64,000 nt of DNA from a virus (IMGVR_UViG_3300010340_001122), one strand, 5' to 3'. Positions 22,946 through 36,927 are shown, counted from the stretch's first letter. Notes: generated by a model not told the origin, from the sequence alone. Made by a program: numbers and translations.

Positions 22946-23779
22946 ATGAAGAATTTATTAATATTTCTAATATCCGTTTTTCTAACTTCTTGTTCTACTT
23001 ATAGTTCATATCAAGTTAATCCTAATTCATATACCGCAGTTGTTGTTGAAGATCCAATAACATATAGTATATATGATAATAATTTAGTATATTGGAACTC
23101 ACCTTATTACTCACCATACAACACGGTTCTAATTTTTAGTAACTACCAATATCAATATTATAATTGGAGTTGGAACACTTACTATTGGTCATCTAATTGG
23201 TATGCTTGGAATAACTGGAACCCTTATCAAAATTGGAATGGTTGGAACTATTCTAATAACTGGAATGGTTGGAACTATTCTAATAACTGGAACGGTTGGA
23301 ACTATTCTAATAACTGGAACAACTGGGGATGTCAAAATAATAACATCTATATAAATAATAATTATTTCGGTGGTAAAAAATCATATAATTATGGATTGGG
23401 TGGTAAATATACAAACACGGAAAAATTTAAATTAAAGCCTTACACACAAACTAGTTCGGAAAAGTCACTCAGACCAGAAAATGTACATATTAATAAGGTA
23501 GAAGAAACTCTAAAATTTAGACCGATTCAACAATCTAGACCAGAAACTAGACCTGTTCAACAATATAACTCACAATCTAGACCGATTCAATCTAGACCAG
23601 AAACTAGACCGATTCAATCTAGACCAGAAACTAGACCGGTTCAACAATCTAGACCAGAAACTAGACCGGTTCAACAATCTAGACCAGAAACTAGACCTGT
23701 TCAACAATCTAGACCAGAAACTAGACCTGTTCAACAATACAAAACACAATCTAGACCGATTCAACAAAATAGAAAATAA
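22946..23779 (+). CDS. Lipoprotein with W/N/Y-rich and QQSRPETRPV low-complexity repeats
   Basis: FLTSC lipobox; NWNGWNYSN x3; C-terminal tandem repeats. Confidence 0.75.
   Translation: MKNLLIFLISVFLTSCSTYSSYQVNPNSYTAVVVEDPITYSIYDNNLVYWNSPYYSPYNTVLIFSNYQYQYYNWSWNTYYWSSNWYAWNNWNPYQNWNGWNYSNNWNGWNYSNNWNGWNYSNNWNNWGCQNNNIYINNNYFGGKKSYNYGLGGKYTNTEKFKLKPYTQTSSEKSLRPENVHINKVEETLKFRPIQQSRPETRPVQQYNSQSRPIQSRPETRPIQSRPETRPVQQSRPETRPVQQSRPETRPVQQSRPETRPVQQYKTQSRPIQQNRK
23518..23768 (+). repeat. 27-30 nt coding tandem repeat
   Basis: caatctagaccagaaactagacc(g/t)gttcaa units. Confidence 0.85.
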
Positions 23780-23990: not shown

Positions 23991-24007
23991 AAATAAATAA
24001 AAAATAA

Positions 24008-24038
24008 TTTGACATTATAGAAAACTTTTGTATATTTG
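24008..24038 (+). promoter_or_regulatory. Bacteroidota-type promoter of tRNA array 1
   Basis: TTTG-N19-TATATTTG; a TAATATATA motif also lies at 24071-24079. Confidence 0.8.
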
Positions 24039-24086
24039 TAATGTAAAAGAAACAAGAGAGAAACAATTTTTAATATATAAGAAATC

Positions 24087-24194
24087 ATGACAACAGTTCG
24101 TACACATAAATCTTTTAGTAAATCGTTTAAATGGCATTTTAAAAGCCATCGATTCGGTACTAAGAACGAACTGCCAAAAAATGAGATAGTGTAA
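24087..24194 (+). CDS. Leader peptide 1 (35 aa, H/K/F/W/S-rich)
   Basis: MTTVRTHKSFSKSFKWHFKSHRFGTKNELPKNEIV*, between promoter and terminator. Confidence 0.75.
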   Translation: MTTVRTHKSFSKSFKWHFKSHRFGTKNELPKNEIV

Positions 24195-24221
24195 TCTCGT
24201 AATTTTTGATAGTGAAATTCC

Positions 24222-24259
24222 AAAAACCCGAATACAAAAGATTCGGGTTTTTTGTTTTT
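24222..24259 (+). terminator. Attenuator terminator 1
   Basis: AAAAACCCGAAT-ACAAAAG-ATTCGGGTTTTTTGTTTTT directly before the first tRNA. Confidence 0.85.
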
Positions 24260-24263
24260 ATAT

Positions 24264-24356
24264 GGTGTCAGTAGCCGGTAATTGGTAACCGACCAGATTG
24301 TGGCTCTGGAATGACTTCAAAAAAGTCTTTTGCGGGTTCGAGTCCCGTCTGACACC
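24264..24356 (+). tRNA. tRNA-His(GTG) with long variable arm
   Basis: G-1, GTGTCAG/CTGACAC, CCAGA-TTGTGGC-TCTGG, V-arm GACTT/AAGTC, TTCGAGT, C73. Confidence 0.8.
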
Positions 24357-24361
24357 CAAAT

Positions 24362-24434
24362 GGAGCCTAAGCTAACTTGGTAGAAGCACTGGTCTGAAAA
24401 ACCAGAGGACCCGGATCGTAACCGGGAGGTTCCA
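24362..24434 (+). tRNA. tRNA-Phe(GAA)
   Basis: GGAGCCT/AGGTTCC, CTGGT-CTGAAAA-ACCAG; atypical T-loop ATCGTAA. Confidence 0.85.
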
Positions 24435-24441
24435 CAAAAAT

Positions 24442-24515
24442 GGTGATTGTAGCTCAATCGGTAGAGCGCAGGTTTGTGGCACCTGAGGCAGCGGGATCGA
24501 AACCCGTCATTCACC
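24442..24515 (+). tRNA. tRNA-His(GTG)
   Basis: G-1, CAGGT-TTGTGGC-ACCTG, T-loop ATCGAAA, C73. Confidence 0.88.
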
Positions 24516-24524
24516 CAAAAAAAT

Positions 24525-24614
24525 GTACTCGCTCATAGGCGTGACCAGGCGGCTCCAACCCGCTCTCCGAAAGGGGTCTAACGATTGGTGAGGGTTCGAA
24601 TCCCTACGGGTATG
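24525..24614 (+). tRNA. tRNA-Trp(CCA), atypical (reduced D-arm, long variable region)
   Basis: GTACTCG/CGGGTAT, GGCGG-CTCCAAC-CCGCT, CTCC-GAAA-GGGG, TTCGAAT, G73. Confidence 0.7.
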
Positions 24615-24619
24615 CAAAA

Positions 24620-24692
24620 GGTTTCATAGCTCAGTTGGTAGAGCGTCGCCCTGAAGAGGCGAGCGTCGGCGGTTCAAGTCCGTCTGAAACCA
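24620..24692 (+). tRNA. tRNA-Phe(GAA)
   Basis: Canonical cloverleaf; TCGCC-CTGAAGA-GGCGA. Confidence 0.92.
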
Positions 24693-24698
24693 CAAACT

Positions 24699-24769
24699 AC
24701 GGGTGACAGGCTTGGTGTCGGTGGGATCTCCAAAATCTTCACGAGCTACTTCGATTGTAGCCACCCGTG
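24699..24769 (+). tRNA. tRNA-Trp(CCA)
   Basis: ACGGGTG/CACCCGT, GGGAT-CTCCAAA-ATCTT, GCTAC-TTCGATT-GTAGC, G73. Confidence 0.8.
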
Positions 24770-24776
24770 CTAAGTA

Positions 24777-24884
24777 CATAAAAATGGAATAAACAATGAT
24801 AATAGAATAGATAATTTAGAATTTTTATGTCCAAATTGTCATTCACAAACTGAAAATTACGCAGGTAAAAATAAATTAAATTAA
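24777..24884 (+). pseudogene. C-terminal remnant of HNH endonuclease
   Basis: HKNGINNDNRIDNLEFLCPNCHSQTENYAGKN* with no start codon. Confidence 0.8.
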
Positions 24885-24887
24885 AAA

Positions 24888-24926
24888 ATGAGAACTATTA
24901 CAATAAAACGAAAATGTAAACGATAG
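24888..24926 (+). CDS. Possible K/R-rich leader peptide before the tRNA-Lys cluster
   Basis: MRTITIKRKCKR*, followed by hairpin GGCAAATG/CATTTGCC (24926-24957). Confidence 0.45.
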   Translation: MRTITIKRKCKR

Positions 24927-24971
24927 GCAAATGTTCCACATATACGGACCATTTGCCAATAAAAAACAAAT

Positions 24972-25046
24972 GATTCCGTAGCAAAATGTGGCTTTGCTCC
25001 TGGCTTTTAACCAGGCTAAAAGTGAGTTCGACTCTCACCGGGATCA
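24972..25046 (+). tRNA. tRNA-Lys(TTT)
   Basis: GATTCCG/CGGGATC, CCTGG-CTTTTAA-CCAGG, GTGAG-TTCGACT-CTCAC. Confidence 0.85.
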
Positions 25047-25091
25047 CAAAAATGTGTTCGTCGAGATTTAAATTCTCCAGACACATAATAT

Positions 25092-25175
25092 CCGTCCGTG
25101 AGTGAGCGACCGAAACTATCAGACTTTTAATCTGACTCCTAAAGGACAACACTGGTTTGAATCCAGTCGGACGGA
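25092..25175 (+). tRNA. tRNA-Lys(TTT) with long variable arm
   Basis: CCGTCCG/CGGACGG, TCAGA-CTTTTAA-TCTGA, V-arm TCCT/AGGA, T-loop TTTGAAT. Confidence 0.75.
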
Positions 25176-25181
25176 CAAAAT

Positions 25182-25267
25182 AACTCAGTTCCCGTAGCTG
25201 GCCGAACGGCTCCGACTCTTAATCGGATTGCGAAAGCACAACGAGGGTTCAAATCCCTCCTGAGTTA
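25182..25267 (+). tRNA. tRNA-Lys(CTT) with long variable arm
   Basis: AACTCAG/CTGAGTT, TCCGA-CTCTTAA-TCGGA, V-arm TGC-GAAA-GCA. Confidence 0.8.
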
Positions 25268-25328
25268 CAAAAATCCGAACTCACGTTTAACTTCTTAAAG
25301 GAAGATACTTATTTTTTATATATAATAT

Positions 25329-26222
25329 ATGAAAATAAATGATATAAACTGGGAAGAGGTTCAACTATTCTACAATAATGATAAAAACTGGAGTGATGTA
25401 TGTAAATATTTTAATATCAGTCAAAATTTAATTATAAGTGCAAAAAAACTAGGACTATTTATTAGTAGAAGTAAATCAGAATCGATTTCTATTTCACTTA
25501 GAAAAACTCCGAGGAAGCATTCAGAAGAAACAAAGAAAAAAATAAGTGAGATAAGAAAAAAGTATTTACAAGAGAATCCAGATAAAGTTCCATATAAATT
25601 GAATCATAGTAGTAAAGAATCATATCCTGAGAAATACTTTACTGAAGTATTTGGAAATGAAGGAATAGAAGTTGTTAAATCTTTTAATATCGGAATTTAT
25701 GAACTAGATTTTTGCATATTAGATAAAAAAATTGATATAGAAATCGATGGTAGTCAACATTATTATGATGAAAAAATAGTTGAGAGTGATAAACGTAGAA
25801 ATAAATTTCTTGAAGATAATGGATGGGATATCATAAGAATAAACTGGTCTGATTATCAAAAACTTGGTTTTGAATATAAAAAAGAATACATTTCAAATTT
25901 AAAAAGTTATATAAATGATTTAATAGACACTAAACCATTTTTTGAGGTTCCTATTAAAGAAAAAAAAATTAAAGAAAAAAAACAAAGAGTTGAGAATAAA
26001 AATAAAAAAATAAAAAAAGAATATTTATGTAAATATTGTGAAAGTAAATGTACTTGGTCTAAAGATAGGTGTGAACCTTGCTACAGAAAACAAAGTAGAA
26101 AAGTAGAAAGACCATCTTTAGAGCAATTGAAAATAGACATAGAAAATTTAGGATATTTAGGAACTGGTAGAAAATATGGAGTAAGTGATAATAGTATAAG
26201 AAAATGGATAAAATCCATTTAA
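25329..26222 (+). CDS. DUF559/Vsr-like homing-type endonuclease with NUMOD3-like motif, Zn finger and HTH
   Basis: RKHSEETKKKISE; YELDF...IEIDGSQH...D..RN.FL...GW.IIRI.W; C-terminal YGVSDNSIRKW. Confidence 0.8.
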   Translation: MKINDINWEEVQLFYNNDKNWSDVCKYFNISQNLIISAKKLGLFISRSKSESISISLRKTPRKHSEETKKKISEIRKKYLQENPDKVPYKLNHSSKESYPEKYFTEVFGNEGIEVVKSFNIGIYELDFCILDKKIDIEIDGSQHYYDEKIVESDKRRNKFLEDNGWDIIRINWSDYQKLGFEYKKEYISNLKSYINDLIDTKPFFEVPIKEKKIKEKKQRVENKNKKIKKEYLCKYCESKCTWSKDRCEPCYRKQSRKVERPSLEQLKIDIENLGYLGTGRKYGVSDNSIRKWIKSI

Positions 26223-26231
26223 AATAAATTT

Positions 26232-26363
26232 GGGGAGGTAGCTCAGTGGTAGAGTATAGCTACACTCTTTTGAAACTTTACCTCTGAAAAGAGTGTTGAT
26301 CGAAAGAGTTACTTCGTATATTTTGAACATATAAGGTCGTTGGTTCGAATCCAACCCTCCCCA
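26232..26363 (+). ncRNA. tRNA-framed ncRNA with extra domain (Y RNA-like candidate)
   Basis: GGGGAGG/CCTCCCC acceptor, canonical D and T arms, about 60 nt structured insert before a TATAT-TTTGAAC-ATATA arm. Confidence 0.7.
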
Positions 26364-27508: not shown

Positions 27509-27540
27509 TTTGGTTTGTATTGTTTTTGTATGTACATTTG
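27509..27540 (+). promoter_or_regulatory. Bacteroidota-type promoter inside the insertion
   Basis: TTTG-N20-TACATTTG. Confidence 0.7.
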
Positions 27541-27585
27541 CATTACAATAATTAAGTAATCAATCACTTTCGATGCAGCCAGCCG

Positions 27586-27704
27586 GAATTGCCGAAGGTG
27601 GGGATTACTTGCACAACAGCCCATCAGAAGCACAAAAGTTCAATGTAGTGCAATTGCTTATTAGTGGAACGTCAGCCCCCACTTTTGGCAATACCTTGTT
27701 AGCG
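27586..27704 (+). repeat. attC-like site 1 (5'-truncated)
   Basis: ATTGCCGAAGGTGGGG / CCCCACTTTTGGCAAT inverted arms ending in GTTAGCG core; no left ..TAAC. Confidence 0.65.
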
Positions 27705-27743
27705 GTATGTGCTTATTGTCAAACGTAAATTAAAATTAATAAA

Positions 27744-28028
27744 ATGAAACAAGCAATTTGGAAATTTGAAACACCATTTGAAGATAAGTTTTCACTTCAA
27801 ATGCCAAAAGGTTCTGAAATACTTTCAGTTCAGCAAGACCAAAAAACTATGATACCTTGTATATGGGCTTTGGTTTATCCAGAAAATGAAAAAGAGGAAA
27901 GGTTTTTTGAACTTTTCGGAACTGGACATCCTATTCACAATGATATGGGAATTGAAAGAAAGTATGTCGGAACTTATCAATATCAACGTGGTGAATTTGT
28001 CGGACACATTTTTGAACGGGTGTCGTAG
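27744..28028 (+). CDS. Cassette-borne small beta-rich protein
   Basis: IWKF...MPKGSEILSVQ...IWALV...GTGH...YVGTYQ...HIFE. Confidence 0.8.
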   Translation: MKQAIWKFETPFEDKFSLQMPKGSEILSVQQDQKTMIPCIWALVYPENEKEERFFELFGTGHPIHNDMGIERKYVGTYQYQRGEFVGHIFERVS

Positions 28029-28034
28029 CATTAC

Positions 28035-28166
28035 CGCTAACGTTAAAGCATTGGCGAATAAGGGGCATTTGAAAGACAAATGTTCAGCCTTTGCAGAATG
28101 TTTCATAGTAGCACAAAAGTTGAATTAACATCGTCAAGCCCCTTTTTTGCCAATGCAATGTTAGTG
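28035..28166 (+). repeat. attC-like site 2
   Basis: CGCTAAC...GCATTGGCGAATAAGGGGC / GCCCCTTTTTTGCCAATGC...GTTAGTG; shares AGCACAAAAGTT with site 1. Confidence 0.75.
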
Positions 28167-28250
28167 GATAGGTGAAAATGGTAATATTTATCATGAATCT
28201 GAGGTAATTGTTGGACTGGATGAAATTAGAGAATATAAAATTGAAAATAA

Positions 28251-35724: not shown

Positions 35725-36927
<1,203 letters not shown>

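Follow-up and report, generated by a model that had tools for sequence, protein, structure and literature searches.

A tRNA operon of nine genes in the DNA of a huge phage (IMGVR_UViG_3300010340_001122) was found to be preceded by an element that is very likely a leader-peptide (ribosome-mediated) transcription attenuator gating the operon. The DNA analysed was one stretch of 64,000 nucleotides, referred to below as the window, and positions are counted from its first letter. The phage probably makes its His, Phe, Trp, and Lys tRNAs only when ribosomes decode the corresponding codons slowly. These conclusions were reached by comparison and modelling, with no experiment and no expression data.

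The window has a G+C content of about 27% and encodes tail-fibre, baseplate, and endolysin-like proteins together with a PurZ-like enzyme. The nearest relatives in the phage collection were LR745206.1 and LR756502.1, the genomes of uncultured huge phages (634 kb and 642 kb). Both genomes come from a study in which Bacteroidetes hosts were predicted for the largest genomes, assigned to the 'Mahaphage' clade (PMC7162821), and the Bacteroidota-style promoters of the window are consistent with this prediction.

Three further observations were made in the window. ORF 35725-36909 on the minus strand matched PHROG 1211 (E = 7e-104), a family annotated as 2-aminooxy adenylosuccinate synthetase; this apparently PurZ-like product hints that the phage may carry 2-aminoadenine in place of adenine in its DNA. 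Approximately eight tandem 30-nt repeats (23520-23760; repeat unit approximately S-R-P-E-T-R-P-V-Q-Q) lie inside ORF 22946-23779 and form the C-terminus of a 277-aa protein without a Pfam match. In the region 27509-28175, two structured stretches of higher G+C content (approximately 27560-27730 and 28030-28170) lie downstream of a promoter (27509-27540), on either side of a DUF7352 ORF (27744-28028), and long-range inverted repeats (GTTAGCGGTA/TACCGCTAAC and a 19-nt pair at 28048/28138) link the two stretches. No credible Rfam match was found for this region, a single sub-threshold match to a miRNA family being the only one, and its structure remains unexplained.

Table 1. Features of the tRNA attenuator and of a second leader unit in the window
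Feature	Position	Strand	Description
Host-type promoter	24008-24038	+	-33 TTTG and -7 TATATTTG, Bacteroidota style; alternatively readable as TTGACA-16-TATATT
Conserved 5'-UTR box	24070-24085	+	16 nt, TTAATATATAAGAAAT; directly 5' of the ATG; common to leaders of different classes
Leader ORF	24087-24194	+	35 codons and TAA
Complete 1:2 hairpin	24094-24173	+	Includes outer stem CAGTTCGT/ACGAACTG; -19.5 kcal/mol
Effective sensing codons 7-18	24105-24140	+	HKSFSKSFKWHF; an A site here frees segment 2 in masked folding
Segment 1	24113-24125	+	TTTTAGTA..ATCG, codons F-S-K-S; pairs with segment 2 as anti-antiterminator
Segment 2	24150-24165	+	Holds ATTCGG (24152-24157), a copy of the terminator 3' arm, and TACTAAGA, pairing with segment 1
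Middle hairpin	24175-24208	+	24175-24187 with 24194-24208; TAA (24192-24194) at apex; -9.3 kcal/mol; nested in 2:3
Intrinsic terminator	24222-24259	+	12-bp stem, 24222-24233 with 24241-24252; -13.2 kcal/mol; then T-run
Segment 3	24228-24233	+	CCGAAT, within terminator 5' arm
tRNA array	24265-25268	+	Nine genes, beginning 5 nt after the terminator T-run: His(GUG), Phe(GAA), His(GUG), Trp(CCA), Phe(GAA), Trp(CCA), Lys(UUU), Lys(UUU), Lys(CUU); both Trp(CCA) at relaxed threshold only
Second unit	28251-28420		Promoter with TATATTTGTAAT box, leader, and terminator; ORF 28298-28366, 22 codons, Ser run and one Arg; terminator 28381-28414

The features of the element are listed in Table 1. Sites of the form TTTG..TAnnTTTG occur only 7 times on the plus strand of the 64 kb window. 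The TATATTTGTAAT box is common to four promoters in the window, and the box of the promoter at 24008-24038 recurs before the leaders at 28275 and 31026. As expected of a leader-peptide attenuator, a short ORF with a start codon lies between the promoter and the terminator. The original prediction described a leader tract in which 12 of 17 consecutive residues are H, K, F, or W, with Ser at four of the remaining five positions; translation of the ORF agreed on both counts and placed the tract at leader residues 7-23. Given a combined background of 0.171 for these four residues in the long ORFs of the window, the binomial probability of 12/17 is 1.6e-6. Among 46,407 stop-free 17-mers from the six frames of the window, 3 reached this count, and all four residues were present only in the leader 17-mer. 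The leader thus shows the enrichment in cognate codons that marks attenuators of this kind, an enrichment supported also by the diagonal matrix and the in-frame match described below.

An intrinsic terminator standing between a leader and the genes it controls is a further mark of attenuators, and here it lies 5 nt before the first tRNA. Nine tRNAs of the four specificities had been proposed to follow the leader, and seven of them (His, Phe, His, Phe, Lys, Lys, Lys) were called by ARAGORN and Rfam at default settings. The two Trp(CCA) genes, at 24528-24615 and 24699-24770, were seen only when the ARAGORN threshold was relaxed; Trp(CCA) genes of the relatives pass the default threshold. A search of 24195-25330, from the leader end to past the end of the array, gave no TAnnTTTG -7 box; therefore, transcription of the tRNAs by the host polymerase must cross the terminator. 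A promoter for a phage polymerase inside the array cannot be excluded.

One detail of the original prediction, a TGA loop in the last element of the array, was not borne out, the last contiguous element (25182-25268) being Lys(CUU). A TGA loop was found only in an atypical tRNA-like gene (26232-26363) approximately 1 kb beyond the array and behind an endonuclease ORF, which is probably the source of the claim. This gene scored 50 bits as an Rfam tRNA and has approximately 60 extra nt in the anticodon-arm region, with TTTGAA loops (UGA at the anticodon position); ARAGORN made no call for it. Lengths of 85-93 nt were seen for His and Lys tRNAs (24265-24357, 25092-25176, and 25182-25268), and Lys tRNAs of equal length occur in the relatives; we take the surplus to be a long extra arm, which is unusual for tRNAs whose arm is normally short. 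Homing-endonuclease genes or remnants interrupt the tRNA arrays at 24773-24885, 25329-26222, and 28553-29401 and account for the gaps in them; they include an HNH remnant, with blastn matches to phage HNH genes, and two endonuclease ORFs of the DUF559/MTES_1575 type.

The RNA elements follow the classical layout, with a 1:2 anti-antiterminator, a 2:3 antiterminator, and a 3:4 terminator, plus an extra middle hairpin around the stop codon. The proposal that an ATTCGG motif in segment 2 copies the terminator 3' arm (where the motif lies at 24241-24246) and can pair with CCGAAT in segment 3 was confirmed in all positions. The inner hairpin topped by the stop codon, also proposed earlier, was present in the minimum-free-energy fold, as was the 1:2 helix, which had been absent from that account. 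The fold of the leader was more stable than those of 200 shuffled sequences, none of which was as stable (z-score -5.9). In single-sequence folds of orthologues, the invariant F-S-K-S codons (TTTAGTAAATCG, segment 1) pair with the block copying the terminator arm (GTTCGGTACTGAA, segment 2). Three Ser codons lie in the sensing window and the array has no Ser tRNA; the conservation of these codons is better explained by the 1:2 pairing than by a Ser tRNA.

Orthologues were retrieved with the conserved 16-nt box before the ATG and with a degenerate pattern for the coding core of the leader. Leaders of this class (class 1) were found at 21 loci, representing 16 distinct sequences, on IMG/VR contigs of huge phages of up to 508 kb and in the two complete genomes of 634 kb and 642 kb; of the 26 IMG/VR stretches matched by the pattern, 19 had a true leader. 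Where the fetched DNA extends far enough, the orthologous leaders precede a terminator and then arrays of His, Phe, Lys, and Trp tRNAs that vary in order and copy number; at one locus, Ser tRNAs are additionally present and His is absent. The same pattern, searched in 185,579 prokaryote species represented by a single genome each, gave 36 matches, all of them by chance and without a leader ORF, indicating that the element belongs to these phages.

Covariation was computed on the alignment of the 16 sequences. The terminator was paired in 100% of cases, and 7 of its 8 pairs had changed in both partners; for the antiterminator the figure was 95.8%, both partners having changed in 4 of 6 pairs (AT/GC, TA/CG, CG/TA, and GC/AT). 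Compensatory changes across homologous leaders, which had been put forward as a check, are thus present both in the terminator and in the ATTCGG:CCGAAT antiterminator. As an attenuator demands, the antiterminator takes up part of the 5' arm of the terminator, and the two cannot form together. Taken as wholes, the two named structures were 91-93% paired, compared with 31-44% when the partner columns were slid by 1-3; the structure composed of 2:3 and the middle hairpin was 91% paired. The 1:2 helix, with 92.6% of cells paired over the 16 sequences, was mostly invariant and showed little covariation of its own. It formed part of the minimum-free-energy fold in the window and in most orthologues and overlaps the regulatory codons, as is expected of an anti-antiterminator.

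In two orthologues (L012 and L020), segments 1 to 4 change jointly at one position (G to A, C to T, G to A, and C to T), giving TCAAG/CTTGG/CCAAG/CTTGG; in L030, segment 1 retains the G, forming a G-U wobble. Two others (L027 and L028) pair in a shifted register, as judged by eye, and this pairing is outside the figures given above. A helix analogous to the middle hairpin, GTATTG/CAATAT, encloses the stop codon in most orthologues. De novo prediction with RNAalifold returned the terminator and two local hairpins with little covariation, and neither 1:2 nor 2:3 was recovered. The parts of the element, their mutually exclusive pairings, and their covariation could be demonstrated from the sequence and by comparison, as could the in-frame match between leader and cargo given below.

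The influence of a ribosome was modelled by folding the nascent RNA ending just before the terminator 3' arm, with 30 nt masked around each A site. The predicted probability of 2:3, defined as the six ATTCGG:CCGAAT pairs, was 0.0003 without a ribosome and approximately 0.12 with the A site on codons 1-6; it rose to 0.73-0.93 on codons 7-18, fell to 0.22 on codon 19, and was 0 from codon 20 to the stop. Constrained folding with ribosome footprints, another check put forward with the original prediction, thus freed the antiterminator when the A site lay on codons 7-18 of the HKFW tract. The effective window covers 9 of the 12 H/K/F/W codons, codons 19-23 being too near segment 2. In all 14 orthologues modelled, the 3' edge of the stall window fell at codons 17-19, right after the K-W-F motif. 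In 4 of the 14, 2:3 was predicted even without a ribosome (probability above 0.9), and in several the model also permits 2:3 with the ribosome at the stop codon. An alternative measure, pairing of the terminator 5' arm with anything upstream, was dropped because A-rich arms pair promiscuously and the measure was too noisy; the specific 2:3 pairs were used in its place.

When the complete terminator was included in the model, its probability was 0.99 at every ribosome position. Enforcing 2:3 cost 14 kcal/mol in the absence of a ribosome; with one placed on K12, the cost was 7 kcal/mol. The antiterminator has only 6 bp. Escherichia coli trpL, taken from the K-12 genome sequence and run with the identical script, gave 0.08 without a ribosome, 0.44-0.87 at W10, W11, R12, and T13, and 0.08 at the stop; with its terminator, the equilibrium probability of termination was 1.0 throughout. 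An antiterminator unable to compete had been named as a result that would refute the prediction. At equilibrium it indeed does not compete; since trpL behaves alike, the point cannot be judged at equilibrium, and the preference for the terminator means that the switch must be kinetic, as in trp. Dependence of read-through on ribosome position rests on modelling only, with the trpL control in agreement. The central idea of the original prediction, that stalling in the HKFW tract frees the antiterminator as an OR gate, held in its sequence-level predictions, in masked folding, and in covariation, with the restriction that not all 12 codons are effective.

The following mechanism is proposed. Host RNA polymerase would initiate at the host-type promoter and transcribe the leader. 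Without a ribosome, segment 1 would pair with segment 2, the terminator would form, and the tRNA genes would stay silent. An unhindered ribosome would cover segment 2 and then melt the middle hairpin at the stop codon, so that ATTCGG could not capture CCGAAT and termination would follow. A ribosome waiting at codons 7-18 for His-, Lys-, Phe-, or Trp-tRNA would occupy segment 1, leaving segment 2 free and allowing the middle hairpin to fold; ATTCGG would then pair with CCGAAT before synthesis of the terminator 3' arm, and the polymerase would go on to transcribe all nine tRNAs. A shortfall in a single one of the four decoding capacities would suffice for read-through (an OR gate), and the new tRNAs would speed up the ribosome and close the switch by negative feedback. 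The stop codon lies approximately 35 nt beyond segment 2; thus, termination without stalling would rest on timing and on opening of the middle hairpin, whereas in trp the ribosome occludes segment 2 directly. Translation of the ORF, read-through induced by stalling, and the physiological trigger (codon demand, tRNA destruction, or starvation) are inferred.

The match between leader and cargo, which we regard as the strongest line of evidence, extends beyond class 1. Every tRNA preceded by a terminator was surveyed in all fetched loci, and, counting class 1, at least seven leader classes were found whose composition follows the tRNA content. Those besides class 1 included Ser/Arg leaders before Arg/Ser arrays; the leader QVNPQPQDQD before Gln-Pro-Asp-Gln-Pro-Asp tRNAs; YYYEAYEE before Glu/Tyr tRNAs; IAIIGGGAGAG before Ile/Gly/Ala tRNAs; IEAIGYAYEAG before Tyr/Glu/Ile/Gly/Ala tRNAs; Asn/Leu/Ile/Thr/Val/Cys/Arg leaders before exactly the corresponding tRNAs; a Gln-run leader before a Gln-only array; and an Asp/Pro leader before an Asp/Pro array. 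The score matrix of leaders against arrays was diagonal, and for six classes the observed score was reached by 1 of 720 permutations, the true assignment only. On two IMG/VR contigs (L075 and L148), a separate array of Gln tRNAs lies behind a pure Gln-run leader, and the adjacent Asp/Pro leader is depleted of Gln; judged from these sequences, this is a natural 'split' experiment in which leaders co-evolve with their cargo.

The second unit of the window (Table 1) precedes Arg(UCG), Ser(UGA), Arg(GCG), and Ser(GGA) tRNAs at 28424-30000, and orthologues of this Ser/Arg unit were found in L001, L002, L012, L030, L034, L106, and L139. A third unit (31003-31200) consists of a promoter with the TATATTTGTAAT box, an 11-codon ORF (31069-31104; Y-Y and N-D), and two tandem terminator-like hairpins. 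Its cargo, extending to 34201, comprises HNH and GIY-YIG genes, one of each, along with two genes for RNA ligases (Pfam PF09414, E = 4e-9 and 5e-26); it may be a leader-gated tRNA-repair module, its pairings being untested. In LR745206.1, a tRNA-Met(CAU) (position 46871 of L154, approximately 364.9 kb) lies directly 3' of the conserved TTTTTAATATATA box and has neither a leader ORF nor a terminator. This ungated gene indicates that not all tRNAs of these phages are under such control.

Three other explanations were considered. In the one that survives best, the attenuator hardware is the same and the signal is amino-acid starvation, sensed as uncharged tRNA, with the array a co-opted cargo without feedback or the element serving mainly to insulate and time early transcription. 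Classical attenuators do respond to the level of charged tRNA, and a lack of tRNA looks the same to them as a lack of amino acid; the host-type promoter is for that reason probably early. Extra tRNA does not, however, relieve starvation for an amino acid, and a precise match of leader to cargo in at least seven classes is hard to explain without feedback from tRNA supply. The choice of codons within the leaders also bears on this question. For Arg and Ile, the leaders prefer codons that the anticodons of the array itself can read (16 of 21 versus 6.1 expected for Arg, and 12 of 14 versus 6.5 expected for Ile), which speaks against starvation as the signal; no such preference was found for Ser, Gly, or Pro leader codons. 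We consider this explanation unlikely.

A switch independent of translation, in which the leader RNA senses tRNAs directly through T-box-like codon-anticodon contacts or binds a protein and the ORF is incidental, is less likely still. The frame of the match argues against it. For codons 5-20 of 39 distinct leaders, matched residues numbered 326 in the ORF frame versus 76 and 69 in the other two, and the ORF frame was strictly the best in 37 of the 39; a match confined to the ORF frame argues for sensing via translation and not for nucleotide similarity. All 16 distinct orthologues retain the ATG and a reading frame open for 28-39 codons, the modelled stall window coincides with the cognate codons, and the occurrence of many cognate codons in runs is a hallmark of ribosome sensing and not of a single specifier codon. 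The strong structure of the leader and the conservation across classes of the 5'-UTR box, which could be a binding site, would suit such a switch, as would the fact that T-box leaders likewise control translation-related genes by antitermination; against this, the T-box family (RF00230) gave no match at E<=1 in 24000-25340, and no other riboswitch in Rfam was matched even at that threshold.

The last explanation, an ordinary small gene with its own terminator followed by an array transcribed independently (for example through an unrecognised promoter of a phage RNA polymerase, or through constitutive leak), with the codon match an A+T-rich coincidence, has as its support that K and F are common in A+T-rich frames, that two further 17-mers of the window also reach 12/17, that phage-specific promoters were not searched, and that the terminator is always favoured at equilibrium, and we hold it to be hardly tenable, since the match repeats for at least seven sets of amino acids, rare ones included (W, H, C, Q, and P), the matrix is diagonal and the match follows the splits of arrays, only 5 nt separate the T-run from a first tRNA in an array lacking a host-type -7 box, and such a gene would not need a segment 2 covarying with its terminator.

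As an attenuator, the element resembles E. coli trpL, hisL, pheL, and leuL in its short promoter-proximal ORF, in the cognate codons inside segment 1, in the intrinsic terminator, and in the mutually exclusive 1:2, 2:3, and 3:4 pairings, with segment 2 copying the terminator 3' arm; with trpL it also shares the ribosome-mask profile. Unlike the attenuators of amino-acid operons, it is borne by a phage, carries tRNA genes in place of biosynthetic enzymes as cargo, and has its stop codon beyond segment 2, in the extra middle hairpin. Among the Rfam leader families, only Thr_leader matched, below threshold (21.3 bits versus a gathering score of 55, E = 0.32) and in the terminator region only, which indicates no sequence relationship to known amino-acid leaders. 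To our knowledge, the leader-peptide attenuators described so far all regulate genes for amino-acid biosynthesis or synthetases. With nine tRNA genes as cargo, the phage element departs from them in this respect; the difference is a historical and not a mechanistic feature of the attenuator class.

Leaders that sense several amino acids are known: that of ilvGMEDA senses Leu, Val, and Ile, and the thr leader senses Thr and Ile. The phage leader is like these in having mixed codons in one leader, and the OR logic by which any single shortage derepresses them is proposed for it too. The amino acids sensed by ilvGMEDA and thr leaders belong to a shared pathway, whereas in the phages the grouping follows the tRNA genes of the array and shifts as arrays split or merge. 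Components of the translation apparatus are also under such control, the pheM leader attenuating pheST and T-box leaders controlling aminoacyl-tRNA synthetase genes. In these systems, as is proposed for the phage element, the state of the cognate tRNA governs antitermination of genes belonging to the translation machinery; they regulate synthetases and not tRNA genes, and the T-box binds tRNA directly, without a ribosome.

That a leader attenuator can report the speed of codon reading, tRNA effects included, has been established experimentally with the his-leader 'speedometer' (PMC4046918, PMC11805395). This property is what the phage switch would exploit; the 'speedometer' is, unlike it, an engineered Salmonella assay and not a natural regulator of tRNA genes. 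E. coli pheV, as a tRNA-Phe gene that might have a Phe-rich leader, was considered as a precedent and rejected, the K-12 upstream sequence containing neither a Phe-rich ORF nor an attenuator. Full-text searches of the literature turned up no account of tRNA genes controlled by leader-peptide attenuation, and a search of the text of PMC7162821 for 'attenuat', 'leader', and 'terminator' gave nothing on attenuators before tRNA genes. The mechanism is thus classical; what is new is the tRNA cargo, the phage carrier, and the modular multi-amino-acid leaders matched to their arrays.

Phage tRNA genes are usually discussed as static supplements for codon usage or as decoys against tRNA-cleaving defences, and we know of essentially no description of how they are regulated. 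A tentative further reading, which we regard as possible and no more than that, is that the leaders form the sensing arm of a counter-defence circuit, in which depletion of particular tRNAs during infection, by host anticodon nucleases or other defences that deplete tRNAs, leads to stalling in the matching leader and stalling turns on the matching block of replacement tRNAs; the similar leader at 31069 may switch on the tRNA-repair RNA ligases. If this reading were true, huge phages would monitor the decoding capacity of the cell for each codon family and repair it on demand.

The composition of a leader can be used to predict the identity of odd, hard-to-call tRNAs in arrays, and the leaders would offer synthetic biology natural, modular, codon-specific sensors of translation speed. 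Classical attenuation is extended here to a new cargo, tRNA genes, and to a new carrier, viruses. With a family of attenuators each matched to its codons, huge phages would be gauging the decoding of each codon group in real time and topping up only what falls short; this provides a testable model for why dozens of tRNAs are carried by these phages.
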